Positions 9,967 through 49,876 of a DNA stretch of 64,000 bases are shown here, one piece after another. Source of the DNA: Candidatus Brockarchaeota archaeon (GTDB lineage Archaea > Thermoproteota > EX4484-205 > JAAOZO01); NCBI GenBank assembly GCA_017601145.1, contig JAFNIV010000006.1, forward strand, positions 479-64,478. The letters run 5' to 3'. Under the pieces are notes generated by a model. That model ran no database searches. It saw nothing but the letters and a program-made list of their open reading frames with translations, and was not told the origin of the DNA. A program made the position numbers and the translations under genes. Numbering within the stretch: position 1 is the stretch's first letter; each line of letters begins with the position of its first letter.

Positions 9967-10937
9967 GGTTTAACTTCTGGAGGTTCAACATTAACTAGAG
10001 GCTTTAAGTATGCAATTGCTTGCTCAACCCCAGACTTCCTACTGAAGCACGGATCCTCATGTTCTACACTGAGAACATAGTTATAGCCAATTTCAAGTAG
10101 TGCTGTTATTACTTTTCTCCAAGGTACATCACCCCACCCAATCGTTCTGAATCTAACTGCTCTTGCTATTTGGTTCCAAGGGCCAGTTATTAGTACTCCC
10201 GTTCTTGAAGCACTATGTTTTACTACTTCAACATCTTTCGCATGGACATGATAAATTCTCTCGTTCAGTTCATAGATGAATTGAACTGGATCCATCTGCT
10301 GCCAAACTAGATGAGAAGGATCATAGTTAAACCCTAAAGCTTTATGATTGTCAGCAACTTTTAGTAGTGTTCTTGCAGTATCTAGGTTATAGTTTAACTC
10401 TTGTGGATGTGTTTCAAACGCGATTTTTATTCCATGATCCTTCGCATAGTCTAAGATTGGAAGCCACTTCTCTTTAAATAAGTCTAAGTAGCTTTCCCAA
10501 ACTTTTTGATTTCCTGGAGGATAACCGTACCACTTACCCCACTCTGGAACTCCAGTGAAAGAATTAACGACAGGAACTTCTAGAGCAGCAGCAGCTTCTA
10601 TTGTCTTCTTTAACCTTTCAATACCATATCTTGATTTTTCTTCTGGAGTACCCTTAAACCACTCGTCTGTTGAAGGATCATGAGGCCCTAGTATAAGCTG
10701 CCCTTCTAGATGATTACTTAATGCAGAAATTATAAGGTTATACTTCTCTATAACCCTTCTATACTCAGAAGCTCCACCATTTATGATTTTTTCTATGTCA
10801 ATGTGGTTGCTTCCTTTCCATGCCGAAATCTCAACTGCTTGATAGCCAATAGAAGAAACGTATTCGAGCGTTTTCTCCAATGGCTGGTCGTTGTATAATG
10901 CTAAGAATATGCCTACTTTCATTTCTTCTTTCACCAC
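9957..10937 (-). CDS. Sugar phosphate isomerase/epimerase (xylose isomerase-like TIM barrel)
   Basis: 326 aa. Alternating beta/alpha pattern with conserved E/H/D metal-ligand contexts (FETHPQE, HVHAKD, SVEHED). Confidence 0.75.
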   Translation of the reverse strand: MVKEEMKVGIFLALYNDQPLEKTLEYVSSIGYQAVEISAWKGSNHIDIEKIINGGASEYRRVIEKYNLIISALSNHLEGQLILGPHDPSTDEWFKGTPEEKSRYGIERLKKTIEAAAALEVPVVNSFTGVPEWGKWYGYPPGNQKVWESYLDLFKEKWLPILDYAKDHGIKIAFETHPQELNYNLDTARTLLKVADNHKALGFNYDPSHLVWQQMDPVQFIYELNERIYHVHAKDVEVVKHSASRTGVLITGPWNQIARAVRFRTIGWGDVPWRKVITALLEIGYNYVLSVEHEDPCFSRKSGVEQAIAYLKPLVNVEPPEVKPWW

Positions 10938-11169
10938 ATATTAGTAATGCTCTTGAAAATATAAGCTTTGCTCATTTTGAAGATGACTGAAAAATTTTAA
11001 TTAAGACAGATAACCAATAAACTTTAAATGTAAGATAAAGAAGAAGCCAAGTTACTTTCAGTAAGCTTTTAATCTTTTCATAGTTTCTGGCAAAACAAAG
11101 CTATACTATAGCCATTTGAGAATTTAATTAAGCATTTACCAAGATTCTATATTTTTACTTATCCATCAG

Positions 11170-12144
11170 TTAACTTAAGAATTTATTGGAACTCAAAGTT
11201 TGTTTAATAGTAGAAGCAGCAGTCTCTGGTTTAGTTGTTATTATTGTTGCTCCAAATCCAAGTTCATAACCAGCATATATATTAGTTCTTGGAATGACTT
11301 CCATATGCCAATGAAAATTACTAAAGCTAGAAGGAGCTATGTGAAAATAGTAATTGTAACTTACATTACCAAGAATCTTCTTCATAGTAAATATAAGCTT
11401 ACTAAAAACATTAAAAAGCTTAAGCATTTCTTCGCTATCTTTAGTGATATCTACAACTTTATTTCTTGAAGTAATCCAAAATTCAAATGGGGATATTGGA
11501 GCAAATGGAACAAATGCAATAAAATCATCTTCAAAGATAACTCTTTCCTGTACTCTTGCTTCATTTATTAGCAAGTTCATTGCCTCAGGTTTTTCTGAAA
11601 ATATCTTCATCTCTCTTTCTATATTTGGTGGTATGAGTTCGCTTCCTATTATTTGTGTGTGCGCGTGAGACACTGATGCTCCAGCTTCTTTCCCGTAATT
11701 TCGAAATATTGAAACATATTTTACTTTTTTATTTTCTTCTATTTTTCTTTTTATAGAGGTCAACGCTTCTATGTAGCTCTTTATTTCGTTTTCACCATAT
11801 TCGTCTATGTCCTTATTGTGGCTTCTAGTTTCTACTATAAGGTAGTGGTAACCATAAGGGTAATTTGGGCTATCTGATTGTGTATCAAATGCAGGATAAA
11901 GGTTCTCAAACACTCTTGAGTTCCACTCGCTGGAATACCAGATTTCTTCTCCAGTTTCTACCTCAATATTATTTTCTTTTATTTTAGTTATTAGTTCAGC
12001 TTTTGGAGTCATCTTCTCATTTCCTGGACAGAAAGGACAGAGAGTTTTTTGCTCTATCACTTCGCTAAAGTAATGGGGTCTTTTACCTCTAGCCTCTGAA
12101 ACTATACACATTCTTCCAGTAAACCAATCTTTTCTAATTTCCAA
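11170..12144 (-). CDS. galT: Galactose-1-phosphate uridylyltransferase (HIT superfamily)
   Basis: N-terminal CPFCPGNE zinc site and the HAHTQII (HxHxQ) active-site motif. 324 aa. Confidence 0.8.
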   Translation of the reverse strand: MEIRKDWFTGRMCIVSEARGKRPHYFSEVIEQKTLCPFCPGNEKMTPKAELITKIKENNIEVETGEEIWYSSEWNSRVFENLYPAFDTQSDSPNYPYGYHYLIVETRSHNKDIDEYGENEIKSYIEALTSIKRKIEENKKVKYVSIFRNYGKEAGASVSHAHTQIIGSELIPPNIEREMKIFSEKPEAMNLLINEARVQERVIFEDDFIAFVPFAPISPFEFWITSRNKVVDITKDSEEMLKLFNVFSKLIFTMKKILGNVSYNYYFHIAPSSFSNFHWHMEVIPRTNIYAGYELGFGATIITTKPETAASTIKQTLSSNKFLS

Positions 12145-26629: not shown

Positions 26630-26705
26630 CCTTGATTGTTAAAAACAATCAAGGAAAAAATAAGTCTTTCTATAAAGTAATTAGGATTTTTGACTAATCC
26701 TAATT
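26630..26705 (-). terminator. Two perfect hairpins just 3' of the pilus-like operon. Possible terminator or RNA-stability elements.
   Basis: 26630..26654: 11-bp stem CCTTGATTGTT/AACAATCAAGG with a 3-nt loop. 26679..26705: 10-bp stem AATTAGGATT/AATCCTAATT with a 7-nt loop. The operon stop is at 26721. Confidence 0.3.
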
Positions 26706-26720
26706 GATAACAAAGTAATT

Positions 26721-29048
26721 TTAAGGCGATAGACTATAGAGTACTTGAACATTAGATATATTTGGGTTAGATGTTCCCGTGAACATTTTGTAGTACATTA
26801 GGGGAGCATTTATGCCACTACTTTTTCCATAAAGGTAAACTGAATTATCGATATTATCATCATAATAATAATTCCATAGCTGATAATCGTAAACATTAGG
26901 ACCTTGCTTTATTACAACCTTTGAGCCATGAGGGTAAGGATTAGAACAATCACCTCCTTCGTATAACATACCTGCTGCTTTAACATAAAAACTACTGGGT
27001 CCAATTTTGTTAGGATTATTGCTTCCAAAATAAATAGCATCGTACTCCATAACTCTTCTTTGATAGTCTGCTGTTGTCCATATCCATGCCTGATCCTCAC
27101 TATAAGCGTTTAAAGCATTAATCAGTTCATTAGAAGCAAAAATTGTTGTTCCAAAGTTTTTTCGATAAATAGCAAGCCAATTTCCGTAAGAGTAATCCAC
27201 AGTTTTTCCTTTTACAGTTATTCCTCTTTCTCTATGGTTTACATTATTGTAGTCAGAAAATGAACCATTAACTACAATATTGTATGTACTTGAGTATAGT
27301 GAACCATATTTTGTTCTTAAACTAGTTCCATAATCGCCATTGGTACCACTAATCATTCCAATGTAAGTTAAGTAAGGGTTATTTAGAGTAACTGATTTCA
27401 ACCATTTACCTCTAAAAGACCAAGTAAAATAAGTTACGTTGTAAGGAACTGAGATTATCATTGAATGCATAAGTTCGTTTGTATAAACTTTTTTAGTAGG
27501 ATATTCCATTACAATTGTGGAGTTTCTAAAGGCAATTGCTCTTATTGGTCCAACTAAAACAGTCCAATTTCCACCAGTTATTTTATCTGGGAACCAATAC
27601 CCATTTGGCATTTGATAAGCGTCATATCCGAACAAAGTATACTCAGTATGGTAACCATTTCCGATTAGGCTAATTGAATAGTCTATCCAATTACTAAAGG
27701 AAATGTTTGCAACTAACCTTAATGTATATACTCCATTTGAAATATCTACAAATGGACCAGAAGCACTCATGTTTATTTTGTAACTAGGAGGAGAAGAATC
27801 ACAATCGTAAACCCAAGTTAGTCTAACTTTTTGTTGTCTTACGTTGGGGGGAAAATTAACCAAAAATACTACTTTTGATCCATTGAGTGTTCTTCTTCTC
27901 CATTCTGCAAACTTTGGAGTTGGGAAGGAATAATCATTTTTCCAAAGTTCAACTTGATATGGAGCTTCTATGAAGTTACTATTTGGTCCATTAACTGTAG
28001 TATAAACTCTTATTTGCTTTACTGGAATAATTGGCATTGGTGGGCTATAAAGTCCAGAGTTTATTGGCCAATCAAACCAATATAGAGTGCCATTGGGAAG
28101 AAGTTCAAATAGGTAAGTCCCATAAGTTTTATACACGCCACTAGCAAGATATTGCCATTGGATAGCATTTTCATTTATCGTGTACTCTGCTCCACAATAA
28201 CTGTAAGCTTCTGTAATTATTCCTCTATTGTCTACAACTTGAACAAGAATAAAATTATAATAATAATTCCAGAAACTATTTTGTTTATTTTTATTATAAA
28301 AATTTGGGATAAAAGTAACACTATAGTTTCCGTTTCCAAAGTAGCTTAGGGTCACACTTGCTCTCTTCCATGGAAAAACACCAGAAGCAACTGTTGGATC
28401 AAAATACCATACCATAACGTTAGAATTCGTTAAGTCATTAACTGGCCCTTTCTCGCTAAGAACAATTAAGTTAAAATATACCGCAGTATTATCATTTTTA
28501 ATTGGAAGCTGTATTGTTGTGTTTAGAAATATAAGAGCTCTTGTTTTCCAACCATAAAGTTGAAGTTGAGCTGAGTTTATGTACAATGAAGCTTCAATTG
28601 CTGAAATTGCTTGAGGGGTATACCAGTAAAGCTTTGTTAAGTTATAAACGTAGAGTGCAGGTAAGTTCACGCCCCATAAATTTTTACTTGGCTGTAACTT
28701 TACTACATCAAAGCTTGTGTTTAGGTTCAAACCTTTTGAAGAATAAGTTTTTTGAGCTGCTTGGTACCAAAAAGTAAATAGTTGAGAAGCATTCCTCCTT
28801 GGAGAATCAATCTCAGCTGATTGATTGTAGATTTGAGTAGTTAATGCAAGAATTTTTGTCAAGGCATTGTTGAAGTCAGTACTTATACTTTCAACTACTT
28901 CTTTGTAAGGATAATAGGATAAAGTTTGAGTTTTTGATAAGCTTATGTAGGCAAGAACAGCAACAGTTAAAATTACTATAGTAAAAAACAAAGAAATTAT
29001 GATAATTATTTGGCCTCTAGTATTGGTATATTTCAAAGTGTAACTCAA
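26721..29048 (-). CDS. Large (775 aa) prepilin-like surface protein; putative pilus-associated adhesin or minor pilin
   Basis: N-terminus MSYTLKYTNTRGQ|IIIIISLFFTIVILTVAVLAYISL looks like a class III signal peptide. Tyr/Asn/Trp-rich with about 15 N-x-S/T sequons by my count. Last gene of the operon. Confidence 0.6.
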   Translation of the reverse strand: MSYTLKYTNTRGQIIIIISLFFTIVILTVAVLAYISLSKTQTLSYYPYKEVVESISTDFNNALTKILALTTQIYNQSAEIDSPRRNASQLFTFWYQAAQKTYSSKGLNLNTSFDVVKLQPSKNLWGVNLPALYVYNLTKLYWYTPQAISAIEASLYINSAQLQLYGWKTRALIFLNTTIQLPIKNDNTAVYFNLIVLSEKGPVNDLTNSNVMVWYFDPTVASGVFPWKRASVTLSYFGNGNYSVTFIPNFYNKNKQNSFWNYYYNFILVQVVDNRGIITEAYSYCGAEYTINENAIQWQYLASGVYKTYGTYLFELLPNGTLYWFDWPINSGLYSPPMPIIPVKQIRVYTTVNGPNSNFIEAPYQVELWKNDYSFPTPKFAEWRRRTLNGSKVVFLVNFPPNVRQQKVRLTWVYDCDSSPPSYKINMSASGPFVDISNGVYTLRLVANISFSNWIDYSISLIGNGYHTEYTLFGYDAYQMPNGYWFPDKITGGNWTVLVGPIRAIAFRNSTIVMEYPTKKVYTNELMHSMIISVPYNVTYFTWSFRGKWLKSVTLNNPYLTYIGMISGTNGDYGTSLRTKYGSLYSSTYNIVVNGSFSDYNNVNHRERGITVKGKTVDYSYGNWLAIYRKNFGTTIFASNELINALNAYSEDQAWIWTTADYQRRVMEYDAIYFGSNNPNKIGPSSFYVKAAGMLYEGGDCSNPYPHGSKVVIKQGPNVYDYQLWNYYYDDNIDNSVYLYGKSSGINAPLMYYKMFTGTSNPNISNVQVLYSLSP

Positions 29049-29511
29049 TCACCTGAAGCTTTTTGTTGGTATAAATAACATCAGCTGAAGAAACAACAGC
29101 CATAATATTGGAGCTGCTTATGTTACTTATTTTTATCTTATTAAGTTGAACTTTTCCAGTTATATTAAGCATTTTCCCAGGAGAAACACTGTAGGTGTAG
29201 TTGTAAACTGTAAGGTTGTAGAAGAGGTTTGGAGGAACTAAAGAACTAAGAATAATGTTCATTTCATACTCCCAACCACTTCTAAGATTTCCATTAGGCT
29301 GAAACATAATGTTTTCAATAACGTTTCCTCTTATTAAAGTAGTTAAAATACCATAAGCTAACTTCTCATTACTTTCTTTTTGATTTAAGCTTATTACACT
29401 TATGTCTTTTACCATAGCAGATCCTACTGCTAGTGCTCCAAGCATTAGCAAAGAAGCTATCGTAGCTTCTATCACTTTGGTTTGTCCCTTATTGTTCATT
29501 TTAAGTTTCAA
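29017..29511 (-). CDS. Prepilin-like protein (class III signal peptide)
   Basis: MKLKMNNKGQ|TKVIEATIASLLMLGALAVG: a basic leader, KGQ, then a hydrophobic helix. 4-nt overlap with the upstream gene. Confidence 0.65.
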   Translation of the reverse strand: MKLKMNNKGQTKVIEATIASLLMLGALAVGSAMVKDISVISLNQKESNEKLAYGILTTLIRGNVIENIMFQPNGNLRSGWEYEMNIILSSLVPPNLFYNLTVYNYTYSVSPGKMLNITGKVQLNKIKISNISSSNIMAVVSSADVIYTNKKLQVIELHFEIYQY

Positions 29512-30719
29512 TACTCACCAGACCTCCACATCGTTAGCCTAAACAAGTAATCATAAGAGCCAATCTTAACTAGATTTTCAAGCACTACAGTTTTTATTCC
29601 GCCTCCAGGCTTTCCAGTACCAAAACTCATAACGTTGGGGATCCTAAACGCAGCAATATTATAATAATTACCAGTATACTTTACAGGAATAAGAAGTAAA
29701 GCAATGTCATCTTCTACTGTATCTTCAAGCTGATAAACTCTGTACTTTTTTGATCCTTTGTTTATTACTTGCCCAGCGTTTCCGTTGGTTTGATTAACTA
29801 TATAATCAGGGTAAACGTATAATGGTGGAACAAACTCGATGGCTGAATTGGTTATTTGAAAAGCACCACTTGGTATTAAACTAACAGGATAAAGCAAAAA
29901 CAAATAGTTTCCAAAAGTAGAAGCATAAAGTAAGTTTGATCCATTGTTGTAAGCATAAGGCATTATACTTTTTATTCCATTGTACCATGCTGTTATTAAT
30001 ATTGTTAGGGCTGCATGCTTTAAATTAATTGTTTTTGAAGTTATACTTAAAACCCAATTGGTTGCATCTATTGTTGCTTCACCATTCCAATCTGTTAATG
30101 TAGTTACGCTAGTTGTGTTATAATTGTAAATATCGTTTCCTCCTTTATTCTGTACTACGACTAGAACATAAGTTACTGTTACGTTAGAGTTTGATGCAGG
30201 TTTACCAGCATAGTTAGTTACTTTAATTTTGAACATTGTTGGGATATACTCTGGGTTTCCACTAGAACCAACGTTTATGGAATTTAAAGGAGTGTAACTT
30301 ATGTTAAGGGCTGGCATAATAGTTATGCTAAACTCGTACCTATTTTCTCCTCTTAGGCCTAAAAGTTTTGCTATCGTCTCGGGATCTATATAAGCTGTAC
30401 TTGGCATTGGAAAGCTACTACTGTTAGTTATTCTTAGGATTTTGTTTATGTCTAAAGTATAAGGAATACTAGCGTTAGCTTTTGCAAGGCCAAAGGCTTG
30501 CAAGTTATTTGAATTTATGTTTAAGTTTGTTCCCCAATCTTGGGGGGTTCCTGGACTTGAGATGATTTTATTAAAAGTTGCTGTTGCCACGTCTTCCAAT
30601 TGGTGTTCTTTAGCTTCAGTATTTGGCACATAGAAAAGAGGATAAAGGAATAGAAACCCAATAGAAACTATAAAGAATAAGACTATAACAGAAAAAAGAT
30701 TATCTACAATACTTTGCAT
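29508..30719 (-). CDS. Membrane-anchored extracellular protein of the pilus-like operon
   Basis: 403 aa. N-terminal hydrophobic helix (LFSVIVLFFIVSIGFLFLYPLF). Asn/Thr/Tyr-rich ectodomain. Confidence 0.5.
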   Translation of the reverse strand: MQSIVDNLFSVIVLFFIVSIGFLFLYPLFYVPNTEAKEHQLEDVATATFNKIISSPGTPQDWGTNLNINSNNLQAFGLAKANASIPYTLDINKILRITNSSSFPMPSTAYIDPETIAKLLGLRGENRYEFSITIMPALNISYTPLNSINVGSSGNPEYIPTMFKIKVTNYAGKPASNSNVTVTYVLVVVQNKGGNDIYNYNTTSVTTLTDWNGEATIDATNWVLSITSKTINLKHAALTILITAWYNGIKSIMPYAYNNGSNLLYASTFGNYLFLLYPVSLIPSGAFQITNSAIEFVPPLYVYPDYIVNQTNGNAGQVINKGSKKYRVYQLEDTVEDDIALLLIPVKYTGNYYNIAAFRIPNVMSFGTGKPGGGIKTVVLENLVKIGSYDYLFRLTMWRSGEY

Positions 30720-30799
30720 AGCTATATCGTTATACCAAAGCCCTTATTTAAGCTTTTTTGATTAAACTTCAATTTTAATAATAACATTTCTTTACTCCT

Positions 30800-31306
30800 T
30801 CATAATTTTAACGTTCCAATACCCGCAACAATTATGCCATTCTGCTTGCTTGCCCAGACAACTATTTTTTCAGTTCCAGAATAAATTTTACTTTTACAGT
30901 ATACTGCTCCAATTGAAGGAACTATGACTGTTCCACTAAGCTGTATTTGAGTTCCAGTTGTTACCCAAAGTGGAGCTTTACCATAAACAAAGCTATTTGT
31001 ATCCGATACAACTAAAACTTCATATACATTGTTCTCTATTATTATGTTGATAGAATAGCCTTTGTTGTTTACTTCTGTAGGAACTTGCAAAACAATTCCT
31101 ATGGACATGTTGTCATAGGAAGACTCGTAACATAATGTAGTTATGTCGACAATATTTCTAGCTATGTAATTTGCAATATCGTTAAACCTAACCTTTTCGT
31201 AGTTGCCAGTAACATTGTTCGCAACAATTAAAAAGCTTGCTAACAAAGCAAACATAAGTAAGAAAAGAGCAGAAGTTAATATTATAGAAGATATACTTTC
31301 AGACAT
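30800..31306 (-). CDS. Pilin/ArlF-ArlG-like accessory protein with an archaeal flagellin-type N-terminal helix
   Basis: MSESISSIILTSALFLLMFALLASFLIV resembles the SE-x-IS N-termini of archaellum and pilus accessory proteins. 168 aa. Confidence 0.5.
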   Translation of the reverse strand: MSESISSIILTSALFLLMFALLASFLIVANNVTGNYEKVRFNDIANYIARNIVDITTLCYESSYDNMSIGIVLQVPTEVNNKGYSINIIIENNVYEVLVVSDTNSFVYGKAPLWVTTGTQIQLSGTVIVPSIGAVYCKSKIYSGTEKIVVWASKQNGIIVAGIGTLKL

Positions 31307-31312
31307 TTTTTA

Positions 31313-32170
31313 TCAATAAGATGAAATTTCAACTTCAATTAAAGAAAAGTTTACTATTGTTCCTGAAACTGGAGAACCATTAAAACTTGAAAGTTCATTG
31401 AGCACATAACTTTGTGAGTTACTTCCTCTAGTTACAACAAAAGTTAAAGAATTCGTAGAAAGTAAAGTGCTATTAAAGGAAATATCTTTACATTTTGCAA
31501 CGACCTTTAAAGAACTCCCACTACCATAAGTACTTCCTCGAATTAATTTTATGTATGATACTTCTACTACATTATATGGCTTAAATTTAACTGAACCATT
31601 TACGATATAGCTATAGTTAAAAACTCCAGAATATGTGACCATTATTCTGCCAAAGTCAACAACAATATATGCTCCATTCTTTTGCATTTCATAAATCCAT
31701 CCTAAAGGTAAACCTTTGCTAGAATCTATTATTAAGTACTTTGTATAGATATCATTTAAGCTTGCAGCAAGTTGTAAGTCTTGTGAAGTTGGTATTATAA
31801 GTCTAAAGTTAGCTGTTCCTACTAATCGCCCACCCATGAATTTTATCAAACTAACTCCATCATTATCGCTATACAGTGTTTGACCATTTACTCTTATTGT
31901 TATTGGTTCACTGTCTGAGACTAAGTAAAGTGATCCTGCTCTTACATAGATTGGGACATAGCCAGAAGAGCCCTCAGAATTTGCAACATTTTCAATCAAG
32001 AGAGTTAACTTTTCAAGAGCAGACTTTGCTGCCTCATATTCGCTAAGCTCACTTTGGTACTCTAGTACATTAAAGGCAAAATAAGTAGTAGCAATAACAA
32101 CAATCAATGAAAAAGAAATAAGTATAACAACCTCTACAACAGTTTGCCCTTTGCGGTTTATTTTCAACAT
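31313..32170 (-). CDS. Prepilin-like protein (class III signal peptide, Glu at +5)
   Basis: MLKINRKGQ|TVVEVVILISFSLIVVIATTYF. 285 aa. It begins 3 nt downstream of the platform gene. Confidence 0.65.
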   Translation of the reverse strand: MLKINRKGQTVVEVVILISFSLIVVIATTYFAFNVLEYQSELSEYEAAKSALEKLTLLIENVANSEGSSGYVPIYVRAGSLYLVSDSEPITIRVNGQTLYSDNDGVSLIKFMGGRLVGTANFRLIIPTSQDLQLAASLNDIYTKYLIIDSSKGLPLGWIYEMQKNGAYIVVDFGRIMVTYSGVFNYSYIVNGSVKFKPYNVVEVSYIKLIRGSTYGSGSSLKVVAKCKDISFNSTLLSTNSLTFVVTRGSNSQSYVLNELSSFNGSPVSGTIVNFSLIEVEISSY

Positions 32171-32173
32171 AAC

Positions 32174-33952
32174 TTAGCCACTGAGCGAAGTTATTGCAAC
32201 TGCCTTGTTTACGTATGGAACTAAGGCCATCACGATAAGGCTAAATATAACTAAGAATATTGCATGTTTAAAGCCTTGAGATGTCTTTGTAGTAGCAACT
32301 TTTCCACTAACTAAACCCATCAAGTAGGATTGCACTATTATTGGAGGTAGTAATGCCACAACCATGTCTCTATAAGGTATACCAGAATGCGCTATGGAAA
32401 GAATTGAGTTAAAGAAAGCTAGAAGTACGACTACAACCAACATCAAGGTTCCAGAACCAATGTATGGAATTATAGCTAGAGGTTTCATTGATTCAGCTTT
32501 CTCTCTTTCACTTTGAATCATGGTTTCGTTAAAAGATGCTAAGGTTTCTAGAGTTTCTGGCATTCCTCCTCCAACCTCTATGCTGTCTATTAGCAAGAAG
32601 AACATTGCCTTTGCAAACCAATTTCTAATATTTTTCGAAAACGTTTCATAAACTTTTGAAAAACTTACACCCCAAGTTAGTTGTCTTCCCATTAGCTTTA
32701 AGTGCTTAGATAGCTTTCCATAACTTCTTTCTGAGAGGTTTATTATACATTTCTCTGGACTTAAACCAGATTTTCTAACTTCTACAAGGTCTCTGAGGAA
32801 GTTTGCCATATCGTATTCTATTCCTCCTTCTAAGAAGTCAATGTAGGATTGATAAATTGCTGCAGGTATCGTGCCAATTATTAAAGTTAGGGCCAACCCA
32901 ACTGTAGACTCAAAACCATTTGGCAAATTAAGGTAATTACACAATATTACAACTGGACTTCTTAAGGTTTTGATAAGTTCAATGTTACCTAAAGGCTCAA
33001 CCATGAATGAAAGAGAAAATATAGTTCCAAAAACAACTAATGTAGGCACAAAAGTTGCAAGGTAAACTATATAAGGAGAGTAGTCTTGAGAAGGTTGCTT
33101 TAGTTGAGTTAAATCTATAAACCAAAGAAAAACTACGGAAATCATTGGCATAAGAATATACCCAAACAAGAAAAGTGCTGCACCGCTACCAAACAAACCC
33201 ATTGCACTTGCTGGCATTAAAGAAGATAAGCTTACGCCTACTGTAAATATAGAGTATATACCTAAAGAAAATATGATTGCAACTACCATATAAATTTCCA
33301 TAATTTGGCCCATCCTTTCTCCAATTATTTTAATAGTTACAAGGCTCCTTTGAAACAGAAGTTCTGTCCTTCTCATAATATAATGAACAACATCACCTCC
33401 AATTCTTAAAGTTGAAGCATACCCTAAGAGAAGCTCTTTAAATTCTTGAGAAGGTAAACTTCTAGCAACATCTTCAATTGCAGTTACTGGATCTAGCCCA
33501 AGTCCATTGACTTTTACTTCGAGAATCCTTGCAAATTCTCTTAAACCTGGAAGAAGGAAAAAACGCCCTAGTCTAGCTATACTTGTATAGGGGGAGATTC
33601 CGCCAGTACTCATGACAGCAACATATGCAGCTGCAAAGGGTGTTTCATTTTCCAGAGCAGAAGATTTGTCTGTAACTCTAAGTTTTGGATAATAAAATAA
33701 AAGGAAAAAAACTGCTACTGGAATCAGCAATGCTAGAGGAAGAGTAAAAACGTGAACTAAACCAAGAACTGCAAGAACGAGCCAAGTCAAGAAAGAAATT
33801 ATAGCTGATACGAAAGTAAAGAAAATAACAATAGCACCATAAGCAGGAGGATAGATCCGCATTAAACCAGCATCAAGATCCTTTTCAACCAGCTTACCTA
33901 ATACTTTACCAAATGGTTCAAAAAGTTCAAGCGCTACATCCGCTAAAGCCAT
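32174..33952 (-). CDS. FlaJ/TadC/PilC-type (T2SS-F family) polytopic platform protein
   Basis: 592 aa. TM bundles alternate with two soluble blocks (..IGGDVVHYIMRRTELLFQ.. and ..VGGGMPETLETLASFNETMIQSEREKAESMKP..), typical of T2SS-F repeats. Confidence 0.75.
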   Translation of the reverse strand: MALADVALELFEPFGKVLGKLVEKDLDAGLMRIYPPAYGAIVIFFTFVSAIISFLTWLVLAVLGLVHVFTLPLALLIPVAVFFLLFYYPKLRVTDKSSALENETPFAAAYVAVMSTGGISPYTSIARLGRFFLLPGLREFARILEVKVNGLGLDPVTAIEDVARSLPSQEFKELLLGYASTLRIGGDVVHYIMRRTELLFQRSLVTIKIIGERMGQIMEIYMVVAIIFSLGIYSIFTVGVSLSSLMPASAMGLFGSGAALFLFGYILMPMISVVFLWFIDLTQLKQPSQDYSPYIVYLATFVPTLVVFGTIFSLSFMVEPLGNIELIKTLRSPVVILCNYLNLPNGFESTVGLALTLIIGTIPAAIYQSYIDFLEGGIEYDMANFLRDLVEVRKSGLSPEKCIINLSERSYGKLSKHLKLMGRQLTWGVSFSKVYETFSKNIRNWFAKAMFFLLIDSIEVGGGMPETLETLASFNETMIQSEREKAESMKPLAIIPYIGSGTLMLVVVVLLAFFNSILSIAHSGIPYRDMVVALLPPIIVQSYLMGLVSGKVATTKTSQGFKHAIFLVIFSLIVMALVPYVNKAVAITSLSG

Positions 33953-34123
33953 TAAAAAGTTTTTTTGATTTAGAACTATTTAACCTTTTCTATTTTCAAT
34001 AATTTTTAAGTAAGTCAATTAAAGTGAACGTTTTCGATTTGAAGTTAAACTTTATTTAGTAGAGTTTATTTCTTTAAAATATTGACTTTAATTTTCTTGC
34101 AAAAAACTATTTTGTAGCTACAA

Positions 34124-36382
34124 TTATGAAGAACTCCATGTAGATTCAGCTTCTACTGCTAGAGAAAGCAATCCAAGACGTGTGCTCTTCTCAAGTTTGT
34201 TTATGTCAGCAGTATAGATACCATTAGATGTTAGTATGGTTAACCTGTTACTTTGGACAACTATTGCATTCGGCATAACTATTTCTCTTCTTATAACTCC
34301 ATTCTCATCTTCAAATATAACAACTATGTTTGCACTTCTTCTACCACCAATTGGAAGAAGCCGAACTATCCTTTTAATGCTATTCACATTGTACTCCTTA
34401 GTTAAGTAATTAGAAATCGCTTCTTTGCTTTCCTTATCTAACATGTTGTAGTCCTCTATAACACCAAGTTCATTTCCTCTCTCATCATAAAAAATGATCA
34501 TTTTAGGATATGAAATTGGAAAAGGTAACCTAACTTTAATATTGTTTAGAGTGTAGCCTTCCTTGGTAGATACTTGAAGTAGAGAGTTCTCGTAACGTAT
34601 TGTTATACTGCTAGGATCTATCAAGTTTATATAGTTTCCATTTTCTACGATTGTTCTTTCTTTTAATAAACCCTTTAATTCATTTATAATTGTTCCATCT
34701 CGCACTTCTATTATTCTATTAATGTAGTTCGTTAGGCTAGGACGATGCGAAATCAAAATTATTGTTGAACTTGGGAGATAACTTAGTATCCCTTTAATTA
34801 TCTTTTCTTCTATATCAACAGCGACATTCGACGTAGATTCGTCTAAGAACAACACTTGCGGTCTTCTAACTAGTGCCCTAGCAATGCAAACCATCTGTTT
34901 TTGTCCTCCAGAAAGTCTTCTTCCAGCTTCACCAACATCAGTGTCGTAAGCTAGTTGAAAACCCATAATGAATTCGTGAGCACAGCTTATCTTTGAAGCA
35001 ATTAGTACCTCTATAGGTGAAACATTTTTTAGTCCGTGAACTATGTTTAGAGCTATAGAACCTGGAAGAAGTAAAGGCTCTTGTGAAACCATAACGACTT
35101 GACTCCTAAAAGAATTTAATTTTATCTTACGTAAGTCAACGTCATCATAAAGAATTCTTCCTTCATCTGGATCATATAACCTAGTGAGCAGTCTTACTAG
35201 GGTTGTTTTTCCAGAACCATTAGGTCCAACTATACCAACTACTTCAGCAGGCTTAATTTCAAACGAAACACCCTTTAATACTGGTTTATCAGAGTAGGCA
35301 AAGAAAACATCTTCTACCTTTATTTTACCACCTATTTTTATGTCAACAGCATCTGGAGCTTCCTTTACAGAAGGCTCTACGTTTAAAACCTCGAGAATCT
35401 TCTCATAGGCTGTTTCAGCTTGAACATAAAGCGATGTTATTTGGCTTAAACTACGAATCGGTGTATAAACTTGACTCACATACCCTAAGAACGCAACTAT
35501 AGTTCCTATAGTTGTTTCCCCACTTAGTACCATGAAACCTCCAAAAAGCATAATTAGTGCTGAGGCCAAGGTTAATGAGAAGTTCATAGCAGGAAAGTAC
35601 TCTACGTTTACTTTAGCTAGGTTTATCTGTGCATCGTATATATCCTTAGCATACTTATAGAATCTTCTATTTTCTATGTCTTCGATACCAAGCACTTTTA
35701 CGAGAACTATTGATGACACTACAGACGTTACATAAGACATAAAGTTAGAAGTGACTTTCCATACTCTAAGGAAGGCAAAACGAACTTTCTTTTGATAGAG
35801 CCATGTTCCAACTAGTATTACTGGTATAGGAATCAGAGTAGCTAGAGCAAGTTTAAAGTTCATAGCGAATATTATTATCAAAGTCCCTCCAAGCATTAAT
35901 ATGTTCACCATAACTGATTGAAGCCCATCTATGAGAAAAGACTGGATTTGTCTCACGTAAGTGAAGATTTTTGCTACAAGATCACCAGTTTGACTTTGGT
36001 CATAGAAATCTAAGCCAAGAGCCATCATATGTGTATACAAACGCTTTTGGAGATCAAGTACAACTCGATTATGAAGAACCTCAACTATGTAACCACCTGA
36101 AGCAGACATTACAACATTCATAGCGTAAAGTCCTACTAACAAGGCTACTAACTTTATTAAGAGGTCAACATGTTGCATTGGAACTAAAACCTGATCAGTT
36201 ATTACTTTACTTATATATGGAGGTGCTAAACCTATAGCAGTAGAAATTATTGAAATTATAAAATATAACGAAAAAAGTTTAAGATGCGGCTTCAGCAAAC
36301 TTAAGAGCTTTAACAAATTTGAACTTTTTTGAGGTTCCCTTCTTTCGTTCACCATTGGAAAAGGTGGCTTTTGTGCTTCCAT
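34124..36382 (-). CDS. ABC exporter half-transporter (TMD-NBD) with an extra ~190-aa C-terminal domain
   Basis: Six N-terminal TM helices, Walker A GPNGSGKTT, signature LSGGQKQ, Walker B VLFLDEST. The beta-rich tail after ..IEVRDGTII is possibly DUF1854-like. Confidence 0.85.
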   Translation of the reverse strand: MEAQKPPFPMVNERREPQKSSNLLKLLSLLKPHLKLFSLYFIISIISTAIGLAPPYISKVITDQVLVPMQHVDLLIKLVALLVGLYAMNVVMSASGGYIVEVLHNRVVLDLQKRLYTHMMALGLDFYDQSQTGDLVAKIFTYVRQIQSFLIDGLQSVMVNILMLGGTLIIIFAMNFKLALATLIPIPVILVGTWLYQKKVRFAFLRVWKVTSNFMSYVTSVVSSIVLVKVLGIEDIENRRFYKYAKDIYDAQINLAKVNVEYFPAMNFSLTLASALIMLFGGFMVLSGETTIGTIVAFLGYVSQVYTPIRSLSQITSLYVQAETAYEKILEVLNVEPSVKEAPDAVDIKIGGKIKVEDVFFAYSDKPVLKGVSFEIKPAEVVGIVGPNGSGKTTLVRLLTRLYDPDEGRILYDDVDLRKIKLNSFRSQVVMVSQEPLLLPGSIALNIVHGLKNVSPIEVLIASKISCAHEFIMGFQLAYDTDVGEAGRRLSGGQKQMVCIARALVRRPQVLFLDESTSNVAVDIEEKIIKGILSYLPSSTIILISHRPSLTNYINRIIEVRDGTIINELKGLLKERTIVENGNYINLIDPSSITIRYENSLLQVSTKEGYTLNNIKVRLPFPISYPKMIIFYDERGNELGVIEDYNMLDKESKEAISNYLTKEYNVNSIKRIVRLLPIGGRRSANIVVIFEDENGVIRREIVMPNAIVVQSNRLTILTSNGIYTADINKLEKSTRLGLLSLAVEAESTWSSS

Positions 36383-36564: not shown

Positions 36565-36820
36565 TTGCCTTCTGAGCAGTTTCAAAATAGAAAAAAAGTT
36601 TAAGTAGTGGTCTAACTCCCTTAACTCTTTGATGGAAGAAGAACTCTTACGCCCTCTCTGTTCTGGAAGCATGGCTTCCTATGAGGGCAGGTTTATGAAA
36701 TGCGAAGATAGAGACGTTGTAGCGGTATTGAACCTTCAGATGCGGGGAGAAGGGTTCACCCAAAGAGCCCTCGATGAAATAATCGAGAGGGAAGGGCTAA
36801 CTACTTAACTCAGAACCCTT
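36565..36820 (+). mobile_element. MITE-like GC-rich repeat, copy A, carrying a degenerate TnpB C-terminus-like frame (36632..36808, 58 codons)
   Basis: Near-identical to the reverse complement of 39883..40170. Its frame reads MEEELLRPLCSGSMASYEGRFMKCEDRDVVAVLNLQMRGEGF.., resembling the C..C..DRDxNAAxNIxxxG end of IS200/IS605 TnpB. It contains the hairpin CCCTCGAT-GAAATA-ATCGAG(A)GG. Confidence 0.55.
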
Positions 36821-39882: not shown

Positions 39883-40170
39883 AGTGAAACATAAGGGTTC
39901 TGAGTTAAGTAGAGATAGATGATGTTTCATTCCTACTCAACCCTTCCCCCTCGATTACTTCATCGAGGGCTCTTTGGGTGAACCCTTCTCCCCGCATCTG
40001 AAGGTTCAATACTGCTACAACGTCTCTATCTTTGCATTTCATTATCCTGCCCTCATAGGAAGCCATGCTTCCAGAACAGAGAGGGCGTAAGAGTTCTTCT
40101 TCTATCAAAGAGTTAAGGGAGTTAGACCACTACTTAAACATTTCTATTTTGAAACTGCTGAAGAGGCATC
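39883..40170 (-). mobile_element. MITE-like GC-rich repeat, copy B, inverted relative to copy A, with a TnpB C-terminus-like frame (39905..40108)
   Basis: Its reverse complement aligns to 36565..36820 with about 8 substitutions in the ORF-like part and a net 24-nt insertion near the 3' end (manual alignment). Confidence 0.55.
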
Positions 40171-46492: not shown

Positions 46493-49400
46493 TTGAAGGG
46501 CAAAAGAAAAGCAATTGCACTTGTTCCAGCGGCAGGAATAGGAGCGAGAATGACTCCAGAATGGAATATAAACAACATAGAAAAAGAATATTTTCCAAAA
46601 CCTGTTATAAAAGAATTTGTAACTAAAAAAAGTTTACTTGAATTAGTAGTAGGAAACTTAAGGAAGTCAGGACTATTTGATGAAATTTATATAAGGGTTG
46701 GAATGAAGAGCTTGTTAAGAGATGAAGCTAGCAAGCCTAGTATAAAGCAAGAAGCAATAAAAAAACTAGTAAAGTTTATCGAAGAGAAAAAACTTGCAAA
46801 GATTTATTTTAACAACTTAGATGAAAGAGACGATGGAACTGGCTCAACTATTCTTTCTGAAGAAATAAAAGAGAAGGTGGGAAAGGACCTTAGCATAGAG
46901 GACATACTAATAATTTCTAGTGATCTTCCAGCAATAAGACCAGAGACAATTAGAAAAATACTTCAAGTCCACAAAGTGCAAAAGAATGATATAACATTAG
47001 TTTCAACCATTGAGAAAGATATATTCGGTCATGGGCGAATTGTAAGGTACCCTGTTATTTTAAAGGGAATTAAAGAAAAATATAATGAACTTTCAAAAAA
47101 GTCAATGAGGTTAAATAAATTAATAAAAAAGGGAAAAATGAAGATAGTGAAAATAGCTGAAGGGAAAGAACCATATTGGACAAACTTCTTAGCACTGTTT
47201 GAAGATGAAATAAAAAAGTTAGAGAAAGGAGAAAAAGTTATAAAGTACCATCCAATAAGAGGAATTATAAAAGATGATAAGATAGAATTAGATAATAACT
47301 TAGTAAGAAAAATTGAGGTAAAGCTTAGCAATGGGAAATTTTTTGAGTTTGATGAAAGAAGTTTAGAATTCTTAGGGGTCGTTGAACAAGAACAAATAGG
47401 AGTTAATGATGAAGAAATAAATAGCAGAACAGTAAGACTAAATAGATTTGAGCACGAACTTTCTTCTTCGTACATAAATTCAATAAAAGAAAGAAATGTA
47501 CTTTGTATGATAGTTTCTAGAGATATTTTACTTAATACTATAAGAGATATTGATGCAAAAGATGAAACAGAAAAAAAGATTGTCTTAAGAAAACACAAGG
47601 AGGAATACTTCCTTCCAGAAGTGGCGAATGAAGCTGTAAAGTTAGGAAAGAAAGTAGGAGTAGTGAAGATAAAAGAAAAAGAGGCAATTGGAATAGATAC
47701 TAGAACTGATTTAAGAATGCTTTCAACTCAGCTAAAAAGAAGAAAAGTTTTGATAAACAAGAACATTCTTAAAAAAATAAAGGAAGAGAAACTGATTAAA
47801 GCAAAAGAAGATGAACTACAGACGCTTGAGCAAGTTTTTGGAGTTAACATTTACCCTAACACGCGAATATTCTTCGATAATCATATTAGAACTTTCATTG
47901 AAAGTATTAAACTTCAACTTAAAAAAGAAGGTAGCACAAAGAGATTTTTTGAGAAGTATAGGGATACATTGAGAGAACAAAGGTATGAAGTGTTTGGGGT
48001 GAAAGAGAAAATTACATTTAGAGTTGGAGTTAACAGCTCATTTCTTGGAGTAGTTGCTTTAAGTGGGAATATTAACATAAAAAGTTTTTGCAAAATTGAA
48101 AACTGCTACTTAAAAAATGTAGAAGTTGGAGAAAACGTACACGTTAGCTCATCAATATTAGAAAGTTGCTTAGTAGAAGGAAGCTACGATAAAGTAATAG
48201 AAATAAAGAATAGAAAAGAAAAAGAACAAATTTTAGGAGAAGATATAAATGAAGAAATGGTAAGTCTCGAGGCTAAGCCAGTAAAAGTAAGTAAAGCAAT
48301 AGAAGAGTTAGAAAAAGGAAAGATAAAAGAATTGGAAAAAATCTATGGAGATAAAGAAGTTGCAAGTGAAAGAAAGGAAAAAATTCTAAAAACAATTAAG
48401 AAGTTCATAGAAATTTTTGGAGATGAAAAAGTAATAGTAGTAAGGATTCCAGGAAGGTTAAATCTAATGGGAAGACATATTGACCATAGAGGAGGGAGCG
48501 TTAACGTTGTTGCAATTCCAAGAGAAATAATTGCTGTAGTTTCAAAAAGAAGCGATGACGTAATAAATCTTTTCAATGTTGACCAACAGTACAAACATTA
48601 TTCCTTTTCAATAATGGAAGAATTACCTCCAACCAAAATAAAAGACCACGAATGGAGATCATGGACTCAAGATAGAATTAAAGGAAGAATAGTAGATTGG
48701 TACGATTATGCTAGAAGTATAGTGTTCTTTCAAAATATGTACAGATTTTCAGATGGTAACTTCATAAAGAAGATTAATGGAGCGAACATTGTTGTTTTTG
48801 GAGATATTCCTCAATCCGCTGGACTTTCATCTTCTTCTGCTTTAGTTGTTGCAGTAAATCTTGGGATTACAATATTAAATAAGTTGAGAATCTCAAAGAG
48901 GAGGTTTATAGAATGGTGTGGGATGGCAGAATGGATAGTTGGCACACGAGGTGGCCATGGAGACCATGCGGCGATAATGCTTTCGAAAAAAGGTAAAGTT
49001 GCAAATATAGCAAACATGCCTCTTAAGGTGAGTTATGTCAATTTTCCAAAAAACCTTTTAGTTGTTGTATGTGACTCACTAGTAAAAGCAAGAAAGTCAA
49101 GAGAAAGTAAGAGTAAATTTAATGAAAAAGTAGCAACATACGAAATAGCTTTACTCTTATTTAAGAAGAAATTTCCAGATTTTGAAGGAAAAGTAAAGAT
49201 GTTTAGAGACATTATTCCAGAAAACATAGGAGTAAAACTAGAAAACTACTATGAAATTTTGAAGGAAATTCCAGAATCTATGAATAGAAGCGAAGTAGTA
49301 AGCAACCTGAGCAAGAACAGCGAGTTCTTAAATACACTGTTCAAGGAACATGAAGAGCCAAAAGAAGGATACAAAGTAAGAGGAGTTATGTTGTTTGGGG

Positions 49401-49876
49401 TTTCTGAGATAGAACGTGCAAGAATAGCACCATTAATAATTAGTAAAGATCCTGTTAAGTTTGGAAATATGATGAATATTTCTCACAATGCAGATAGAGA
49501 ATATAAGTATATAAACAGAGAAAAAATAAGATGGAAAAATGACTGTAGCGAAGAATACCTTAACAACCTAGTAAGAAAGCTTAAGGAAAACCCAAATGAA
49601 GAAAGTTGTAAGTTGTATATGCAAAGTGGAGACTATGGTTGTGGAAATGAGAAAACAGATCTTATAGTAGATTTAGCCACTTCTGTGGAGGGAGTTCTTG
49701 GAGCTGAAATTGTTGGCGCAGGGTTAGGAGGAAGTGTAGCAATATTTTTAAAAAAAGAAGCATTAAGTAATTTAATGAGAAAACTTAAGGAAGAGTACTA
49801 TAAGGATGAATTACTAATGAAAAACTCTACTATAGCTTTTAAACCAATTGAAGGTGCAACTGTAATAAAGTTCTAA
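46493..49876 (+). CDS. 1127-aa fusion: GlmU/RmlA-like sugar-1-phosphate nucleotidyltransferase, an LbH-like segment, and a galactokinase-like GHMP sugar-1-kinase
   Basis: N-terminus: ALVPAAGIGARM, DDGTGST, EYFLPEV, GIDTRTDL. C-terminus: RIPGRLNLMGRHIDHRGG (galactokinase signature-like) and GDIPQSAGLSSSSALVVA (GHMP ATP motif). Long Lys/Glu-rich inserts. TTG start. Confidence 0.8.
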   Translation: MKGKRKAIALVPAAGIGARMTPEWNINNIEKEYFPKPVIKEFVTKKSLLELVVGNLRKSGLFDEIYIRVGMKSLLRDEASKPSIKQEAIKKLVKFIEEKKLAKIYFNNLDERDDGTGSTILSEEIKEKVGKDLSIEDILIISSDLPAIRPETIRKILQVHKVQKNDITLVSTIEKDIFGHGRIVRYPVILKGIKEKYNELSKKSMRLNKLIKKGKMKIVKIAEGKEPYWTNFLALFEDEIKKLEKGEKVIKYHPIRGIIKDDKIELDNNLVRKIEVKLSNGKFFEFDERSLEFLGVVEQEQIGVNDEEINSRTVRLNRFEHELSSSYINSIKERNVLCMIVSRDILLNTIRDIDAKDETEKKIVLRKHKEEYFLPEVANEAVKLGKKVGVVKIKEKEAIGIDTRTDLRMLSTQLKRRKVLINKNILKKIKEEKLIKAKEDELQTLEQVFGVNIYPNTRIFFDNHIRTFIESIKLQLKKEGSTKRFFEKYRDTLREQRYEVFGVKEKITFRVGVNSSFLGVVALSGNINIKSFCKIENCYLKNVEVGENVHVSSSILESCLVEGSYDKVIEIKNRKEKEQILGEDINEEMVSLEAKPVKVSKAIEELEKGKIKELEKIYGDKEVASERKEKILKTIKKFIEIFGDEKVIVVRIPGRLNLMGRHIDHRGGSVNVVAIPREIIAVVSKRSDDVINLFNVDQQYKHYSFSIMEELPPTKIKDHEWRSWTQDRIKGRIVDWYDYARSIVFFQNMYRFSDGNFIKKINGANIVVFGDIPQSAGLSSSSALVVAVNLGITILNKLRISKRRFIEWCGMAEWIVGTRGGHGDHAAIMLSKKGKVANIANMPLKVSYVNFPKNLLVVVCDSLVKARKSRESKSKFNEKVATYEIALLLFKKKFPDFEGKVKMFRDIIPENIGVKLENYYEILKEIPESMNRSEVVSNLSKNSEFLNTLFKEHEEPKEGYKVRGVMLFGVSEIERARIAPLIISKDPVKFGNMMNISHNADREYKYINREKIRWKNDCSEEYLNNLVRKLKENPNEESCKLYMQSGDYGCGNEKTDLIVDLATSVEGVLGAEIVGAGLGGSVAIFLKKEALSNLMRKLKEEYYKDELLMKNSTIAFKPIEGATVIKF

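Follow-up and report, generated by a model that had tools for sequence, protein, structure and literature searches.

A type IV pilus-like operon in a Brockarchaeota genome is probably the platform and accessory half of a Thermoproteota pilus system split by genome rearrangement

Background

In the Thermoproteales the ATPase/TadC modules and the pilin sets of type IV pilus systems recombine and can act in trans, split loci have been described, and there are pilin loci with neither the ATPase nor TadC; large proteins with a signal peptide are considered probable adhesins or minor pilins in the same order (Makarova, Koonin & Albers 2016, PMC4858521). Subsystem 4A, described from Thermoproteota and Bathyarchaeota, comprises an adhesin and accessory genes that follow the platform gene, and systems are known that mix pilins carrying a class III signal peptide (SPIII) with pilin-like proteins that lack it (Sivabalasarma & Albers 2026, bioRxiv 10.64898/2026.04.22.720090). 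Here we describe six co-directional open reading frames (ORFs) on the minus strand, at 26721-33952, of a 64,000-nucleotide (nt) stretch of DNA from a Candidatus Brockarchaeota archaeon (contig JAFNIV010000006.1 of assembly GCA_017601145.1), referred to below as the window. They encode proteins of 592, 285, 168, 403, 164 and 775 amino acids (aa), and probably represent the platform and accessory half of a conserved Thermoproteota type IV pilus system that was split by genome rearrangement. We read the locus as a gene cluster that has been rearranged, not as a machine of a new kind.

The coordinates and the tight packing given in the initial annotation were reproduced (gaps of 3, 6 and 80 nt, overlaps of 4 and 32 nt). 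The genes are, in the order of transcription, with a slash at the predicted cleavage site:

32174-33952, minus strand: platform protein, 592 aa, of the TadC/FlaJ/PilC type, with two domains of the type II secretion system F family (T2SS-F); Pfam T2SSF
31313-32170, minus strand: predicted minor pilin, 285 aa, class III signal MLKINRKG/QTVVE...; motif scan and pilin-profile alignment
30800-31306, minus strand: accessory component, 168 aa, N-terminal hydrophobic helix, no class III motif; hydropathy and orthologue conservation
29508-30719, minus strand: accessory component, 403 aa, N-terminal hydrophobic helix, no class III motif; hydropathy and orthologue conservation
29017-29511, minus strand: predicted minor pilin, 164 aa, class III signal ..NNKG/QTKVIEATIAS..; motif scan and conserved consensus
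26721-29048, minus strand: predicted tip adhesin or large minor pilin, 775 aa, ..TNTRG/QIIIIISLFF..; motif scan and AlphaFold2 model

Among the described systems the operon is most like system 4, subsystem 4A, a likeness that rests on the gene order, the taxon labels and the published description. In the classification of archaeal type IV filaments this subsystem is further marked by an ATPase of phylogenetic subclade 4A, pilins of arCOG11238 or arCOG06117 and a PilY-like adhesin. Shared are the TadC-type platform, the downstream accessory genes, the large adhesin-like protein and the range over Thermoproteota and Bathyarchaeota, as well as, in the relatives of the window, the PilA-like pilin and the FlaI-family ATPase. 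A difference is that the ATPase gene is unlinked here, whereas 48 of 59 related loci keep the pair within 10 kb.

The Ups and Aap pili and the bindosome of the Sulfolobales are crenarchaeal systems of the type IV pilus type that also have a TadC-like platform, and UpsF and BasF are the best NCBIfam matches of the platform protein. However, these matches are weak and far below the cut-offs (UpsF 84.2 against 400 bits, BasF 65 against 1300), and UpsX, UpsA/B, AapX and BasABC are not present here. The archaellum shares with the window a platform of the T2SS-F superfamily (ArlJ/FlaJ), and its ArlF and ArlG have unprocessed N-terminal helices. In contrast, the platform protein scores 43.4 bits for ArlJ where 550 are required, archaellins, ArlCDE, ArlH and ArlX are lacking in the window locus, and for the 168-aa and 403-aa proteins no similarity to a known family could be detected. 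Finally, the five genes downstream of the platform gene recall the bacterial minor-pilin tip complexes (GspH-I-J-K of the type II secretion system, T2SS; FimU-PilVWX with PilY1 of the type IVa pilus): four or five co-encoded pilin-like proteins of low abundance, one of them much larger than the others, which are thought to prime assembly and to cap the filament. No sequence or fold homology to these proteins was detected, and two of the five window proteins are without a class III signal. The likeness is one of functional analogy only.

Results and discussion

Platform protein and class III signals

The 592-aa protein matches Pfam T2SSF in two stretches (E-value 1.2e-22; 80.6 bits against a cut-off of 25.2), and its hydropathy profile consists of about eight hydrophobic blocks with two soluble regions between them. 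The homology and the layout both agree with its annotation as a FlaJ/TadC/PilC-type platform with two soluble blocks. Its 342 homologues include proteins of 39-51% identity in Brockarchaeota, Thermofilaceae (including Thermofilum pendens), Bathyarchaeia, Methanomethylicia and Nezhaarchaeales. An identical protein is encoded on 22 contigs of metagenome-assembled genomes (MAGs) from hot springs that are labelled "Thermoproteota archaeon" (GCA_038734975.1 and others). In six of those MAGs the block made up of an ABC exporter gene, the six genes and a DNA ligase gene is constant, and the sequence farther upstream varies. The ligase gene, which lies downstream of the operon and encodes an ATP-dependent enzyme, is intact (527 aa) in the window and in four other MAGs, is found as pieces of 342 and 185 aa in locus L005 (17598-19280) and is truncated in L006 (17311-18336); this breakage probably reflects an insertion or an assembly difference.

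All six frames of the 64 kb were scanned for class III signals, defined as [KR][GA] at most 35 aa after a start codon and ahead of a run of about 20 hydrophobic residues. Exactly three ORFs were returned, the 285-aa, 164-aa and 775-aa genes, and since nothing else in the window was picked up, the motifs are specific to the six-gene operon. They are the same three that had been read as [KR]GQ signals at the outset. In each of these three of the five downstream proteins the conserved [KR]GQ motif is followed by a hydrophobic stretch, and the predicted signal is kept in orthologues from dozens of species. According to hydropathy, all five downstream proteins have a single hydrophobic segment, at the N-terminus.

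The same operon in related genomes

Using the platform profile, 59 species-representative loci were fetched with up to 10 kb of flanking sequence, and the components were mapped by tblastn. A T2SS-E ATPase gene lies within the fetched flank in 48 of these loci: divergently upstream in 22, co-directionally upstream in another 22 and downstream in four. Of the 11 loci without an ATPase gene, 10 have a flank too short to judge. The window's two nearest relatives are among these 10, and in both the ABC gene is found in the short stretch available upstream. In 30 of the 59 loci, four or five accessory families are present, generally in colinear order. The annotation as a type IV pilus-like operon, with a genuine TadC/FlaJ-type platform and products that bear class III signals, is supported.

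The complete arrangement is seen in L007 and L008 (1.38-Mb contig), whose platform is 51% identical to that of the window. All six genes are found there in unchanged order, and a PilA-like pilin, a T2SS-E ATPase and an A24 peptidase are encoded divergently adjacent to the six-gene operon. The pilin is a protein of 158 aa that starts MRSNLARDKRG/ISPVITTVILVAVG..., with the cleavage region KRG/ISPVITTVIL. A conserved pilin of about 150-165 aa, with the pattern ...SPVI[AT]TVIIVAV...KLHSTGGKEY..VLP, usually accompanies the ATPase in the related loci, and the A24 peptidase is adjacent in the sister clade only. The ATPase of L007 and L008 contains an intein: in L007 (6284-9331, minus strand), and identically in L008, the ORF is 1015 aa long and an intein of about 480 aa (Pfam Intein_splicing) stands directly before the His-box TGHGG.

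Several relatives depart from this layout. In T. pendens (L009, CP000505, 10001-17740) unrelated genes fill the interval of about 4 kb between the platform and T2SS-E ATPase genes, and none of the accessory genes is nearby. In the Thermofilaceae MAG loci L032, L033 and L055 the accessory genes form a block that follows the platform gene and is encoded by the other strand.

A probably relocated ATPase

The initial annotation had noted that no secretion ATPase, KaiC-like protein or prepilin peptidase is encoded in the 64 kb, and two kinds of search agree with it. A tblastn search of the window with two T2SS-E ATPases and one A24 peptidase gave nothing better than an E-value of 0.1, and no T2SSE, KaiC or Peptidase_A24 family was found by Pfam among the window ORFs of at least 120 aa (all except three inside or overlapping longer ORFs, the families being in part those recorded for the matching genes of L001). 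A PilA-like pilin is likewise not encoded in the window. Pilus loci without a prepilin peptidase are common in archaea.

With the L007 ATPase as the query, after removal of its intein, a solitary T2SS-E gene was found in three MAGs. Its product P0156 (559 aa; GCA_038734975.1 and GCA_038728525.1) is 60% identical to the operon-adjacent ATPase of L007, and the near-identical P0160 is encoded in GCA_038872355.1. Each of the three MAGs also encodes the exact 592-aa platform, the ATPase being on another contig. The gene sits between an asd-lysC-hom-thrB-thrC block and dnaJ-dnaK-grpE, and no platform or pilin ORF is found beside it in these MAGs. Its product has an intact Walker A motif (GGTGAGKTT) and His box (TGHGGLSTIHA) and is free of the intein. 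An assembly artefact was considered and rejected: at least six MAGs, assembled independently, show the same platform context, and the ATPase gene is located at least 6 kb inside its contigs (mid-contig in one contig of 55 kb), amid housekeeping genes.

The identities of the solitary ATPase to the operon-adjacent ATPases of 44 loci follow the corresponding platform identities (Spearman 0.82, p 8e-12), and the highest values, 57-65%, were obtained for the clade whose platforms are nearest to that of the window. Since its pattern of divergence tracks that of the platform, we consider the solitary ATPase to be the relocated cognate orthologue; its gene now lies on another contig, at a distance of at least 35 kb. 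Because an orthologue of this ATPase is encoded beside the six genes in nearly all relatives, we regard the locus as a split system rather than an orphan.

This changes how the locus had been read. The initial annotation had described an orphan filament or adhesin module, a description that does not hold: the same operon adjoins an ATPase gene in 48 of the 59 related loci, and the cognate ATPase is encoded in the same MAGs. It had also asked for a FlaI-like ATPase separated from its own platform gene, and such a gene does exist. The proposal that the module is energised in trans is favoured by the solitary ATPase, but the enzyme appears to be the system's own relocated ATPase and not, as had been suggested, that of another pilus system.

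Selection on the operon and the ABC transporter gene

One could suppose that the operon, having lost its ATPase neighbour, is no longer functional and that its genes are turning into pseudogenes, and the lack of an ATPase, a peptidase and a major pilin within 64 kb would agree with such decay. The comparison with L013, whose platform is 86% identical to that of the window, speaks against it. The ratio of nonsynonymous to synonymous substitution rates (dN/dS) is 0.085 for the platform, 0.139 for the 285-aa, 0.103 for the 168-aa, 0.091 for the 403-aa, 0.127 for the 164-aa and 0.179 for the 775-aa gene, at a dS of about 0.9-1.4. These values are comparable to those of housekeeping neighbours (0.057 for the DNA ligase) and indicate purifying selection; because they are low, the six genes must have been maintained by selection during the divergence of the window and L013. 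Moreover, at least six MAGs have every one of the six ORFs intact, L013 has no stop codon in any of them, and the cognate ATPase has been retained intact. A decayed locus, one of the possibilities raised initially, is therefore very improbable.

The upstream neighbour of the platform gene, correctly annotated as an ABC exporter, is encoded at 34124-36382 on the minus strand. It is a half-transporter of the MsbA/HlyB type (752 aa) with the domains ABC_membrane, ABC_tran and a C-terminal DUF1854; its best NCBIfam match is a cyanophycin-associated ABC transporter, at 366 bits against a cut-off of 880. It has been suggested that an unconventional partner serves the module, in which case the exporter would have replaced the FlaI-type ATPase as the energiser or export partner of the platform and the pilin-like proteins. 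Indeed, the ABC gene occupies the position that the ATPase gene has in the relatives, it is co-directional with the platform gene at a distance of 171 nt in the window and 227 nt in L013 (where it lies immediately upstream of the platform gene, in a flank of 1.9 kb), and this neighbourhood is constant in the six MAGs despite the variable sequence farther upstream. However, in L014, with a platform identity of 85%, the ABC gene is on the opposite strand and 1.1 kb away, and an ABC exporter in the ATPase position was seen only in the window's species, L013 and L014, relatives outside this lineage having no ABC gene there and an ATPase gene in its place. Between the two genes of the window lie a run of six T residues (34101-34106), after the ABC stop codon, and a BRE/TATA-like element, described below, before the platform ATG. 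The ABC protein is, in addition, a complete half-transporter with its own membrane domain, and the cognate T2SS-E ATPase has been retained. A role of the exporter as the partner of the platform is thus extremely improbable.

The smaller downstream proteins

The N-terminus of the 285-aa family reads [KR]G/VSEVV.TV.L in the orthologues and KG/QTVVE in the window, which puts a glutamate at position +5, exactly as had been annotated. The gene has colinear orthologues in 29 loci. A profile of these proteins can be aligned with the N-terminal part of the PilA-like pilin profile (hhalign 96%, E-value 4e-9), and five of 30 orthologues match Pfam DUF7289, albeit weakly (best E-value 2.5e-6). In L023 (about 10034-12100) the ORF that matches the 285-aa family is 703 aa long and starts with a platform N-terminus, which suggests either a fusion of platform and minor pilin or a frame error.

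The 164-aa family has the consensus RGQxRxxEAxLAS in 25 orthologues, with G and Q nearly invariant and E invariant. A DUF7288 match was obtained for one of the 25 (E-value 1.4e-3), and the alignment to the pilin profile is weak (hhalign 26%). The AlphaFold model made from the single sequence was unusable, with a predicted local distance difference test score (pLDDT) of 32.8.

The 168-aa protein is hydrophobic over residues 1-34, and its orthologues start with MPSxPFETxILT without a leader. In the 403-aa protein the hydrophobic segment covers residues 1-33, and the 30 orthologues combine a leaderless MHxTL[DE] start with a PGxPxxWG motif. No match to Pfam, the PDB or the pilin profile was found for the 168-aa family, and no meaningful one for the 403-aa family, so the earlier description of these two proteins as ArlF/ArlG-like could not be upheld; the 775-aa family was negative in the hhalign comparison with the pilin profile as well. 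Searches of the PDB by sequence with the five accessory families yielded nothing credible. Matches to flavin monooxygenases (E-value about 0.003) covered a stretch of 59 residues and were judged spurious.

Two of 21 members of the 775-aa family weakly match DUF7261, which is, like DUF7289 and DUF7288, a putative family of haloarchaeal pilus loci. None of the three was mentioned in the literature searched.

The 775-aa protein

The 775-aa protein belongs to a small family: a search of 1.84 billion proteins yields 119 clusters at the 50% identity level. Its orthologues range from 380 to 1187 aa and conserve the [KR]GQ motif and the hydrophobic run. The gene evolves fastest of the six: its product has 66% amino acid identity in the comparison of the window with L013, and those of the other five genes 82-86%. 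The protein had been characterised as rich in Tyr, Asn and Trp, with about 15 N-x-S/T sequons. The composition agrees (9.7% Tyr, 9.4% Asn, 2.8% Trp), and 15 sequons were counted, but this is a modest excess over the 11.2 expected from the composition.

From an alignment of 46 sequences AlphaFold2 produced a confident model (pLDDT 88.1; predicted template modelling score, pTM, 0.84), in which a 68-residue helix (residues 10-77) right after the RGQ motif and a second helix (81-101) are followed by all-beta domains. The best Foldseek match in the PDB is a PL26 exo-rhamnogalacturonan lyase (E-value 3.7e-8, template modelling score, TM, 0.32, about 540 columns). Further matches are GH38, GH36, LacZ and galactose mutarotase (TM 0.41-0.42 when normalised to the target). 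TM scores are low overall (0.2-0.4), and the matches fall on non-catalytic modules of carbohydrate-active enzymes, of the beta-supersandwich and Ig-like kinds. The best 50 PDB chains include neither a pilin nor PilY1; for PilY1 this is no evidence for or against a remote homology. The model fits a large tip adhesin with a class III signal, possibly with affinity for glycans.

Such a protein need not stand on a pilus. Having lost the linkage to its major pilin, and perhaps that pilin too, the module might build with the relocated ATPase a short stub, resembling a pseudopilus or bindosome, that shows the 775-aa protein on the cell surface for glycan binding or substrate capture, with no long pilus being made. 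A recent preprint indeed proposes type IV filament machineries that have been functionalised with SPIII binding proteins. The likeness of the model to the beta-sandwich domains just mentioned points in the same direction, as does the abundance of sugar-metabolism genes in the window (GH3, GFO/IDH/MocA, xylose-isomerase-like, galactokinase). Furthermore, when the databases were searched with the major-pilin profile, no protein of the source MAGs was found among the best 120 of 3087 matches; the candidates P0241 and P0277 came from other species with the canonical layout and were set aside. On the other hand, because it was drawn from the best 120 of the 3087 matches, the failure to find a pilin is weak evidence. 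The 775-aa family accompanies the canonical pilin in nearly all relatives, the Foldseek TM scores are low, and the neighbourhood of sugar genes is limited to the lineage of the window. We therefore regard the stub as unlikely. The module could also have become uncoupled from both the ATPase gene and the filament pilin, and serve as a short, pilin-poor, bindosome-like device for the display of the 775-aa protein instead of a pilus; a slim chance of this is left because the pilin and the peptidase have not been located.

A proposed model for a split pilus system

In the pilus system that we favour, the TadC/FlaJ-type platform would dock a hexameric FlaI/PilB-family ATPase that is encoded apart, between thrC and dnaJ-dnaK-grpE, and the two would function together in trans. 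A prepilin peptidase encoded outside the window would cleave the 285-aa, 164-aa and 775-aa proteins after [KR]G. These three are most likely minor pilins that prime or cap the filament, and the 775-aa protein would be placed at its tip as a beta-sandwich adhesin, possibly one that binds glycans. The 168-aa and 403-aa proteins would be unprocessed, N-terminally anchored accessory parts of the assembly machine, and a PilA-like major pilin, whose gene would lie elsewhere, would form the filament.

Several points weigh against this reading. Neither the major pilin nor the prepilin peptidase of the source genome was found (for the pilin profile, among the best 120 of 3087 matches). The one-to-one pairing of the solitary ATPase with the window platform is presumed. 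Pilin homology has statistical support for the 285-aa family only; the pilin-like assignment of the 164-aa and 775-aa proteins is drawn from motif and position, and the 168-aa and 403-aa proteins are without detectable relatives of known function.

The split locus does not reveal a new mechanism. It does illustrate how an orphan secretion module may be told from a rearranged one, by combining synteny, a search for the ATPase in the same assemblies, matching divergence and dN/dS. In this one lineage the genes for the ATPase and the platform have come apart and yet both remain under selection, which we take as evidence that the pair can work apart. The comparison also defines a set of five accessory genes that is widely conserved among the pilus systems of Thermoproteota, and provides a confident model of its large, adhesin-like member; set and model could guide experiments in cultivable relatives such as the Thermofilaceae.

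Operon ends and other features of the window

Two elements, both recognised by reading the sequence, flank the operon:

33977-33990, minus strand: BRE/TATA-like element, GAAAAGG TTAAATA, with its centre about 28 nt 5' of the platform ATG (BRE, B recognition element)
26630-26704, minus strand: two hairpin-forming inverted repeats and a run of six T residues, just 3' of the stop codon of the 775-aa gene

Since the placement of the first element fits the established layout of archaeal promoters, the purine-rich BRE-like part and the TTAAATA box are likely to be the operon's own promoter and to give a leaderless transcript. The hairpins and T-run would form a terminator-like end of the operon. Scans of the window with Rfam and for tRNA genes gave no match.

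Among the sugar-metabolism genes of the window, an ORF of 1127 aa (46493-49876, plus strand) contains a galactokinase/GHMP kinase in residues 636-1103, preceded by about 635 aa without a Pfam match; it is either an unusual galactokinase fusion or an ORF over-extended to a TTG start. Just upstream of the ABC exporter gene, a 210-nt inverted repeat that is 95% complementary (36594-36803 and 39934-40143) brackets a 3.1-kb segment with three genes, encoding proteins of 171 aa and 244 aa and a GFO/IDH/MocA oxidoreductase of 332 aa. The orientation of this segment is reversed in the MAG loci L002 and L003 compared with the window and L001, and in L004 the same repeat forms a different recombination junction. 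Either the segment is invertible or recombinogenic within one species, or it represents a recurrent assembly ambiguity.

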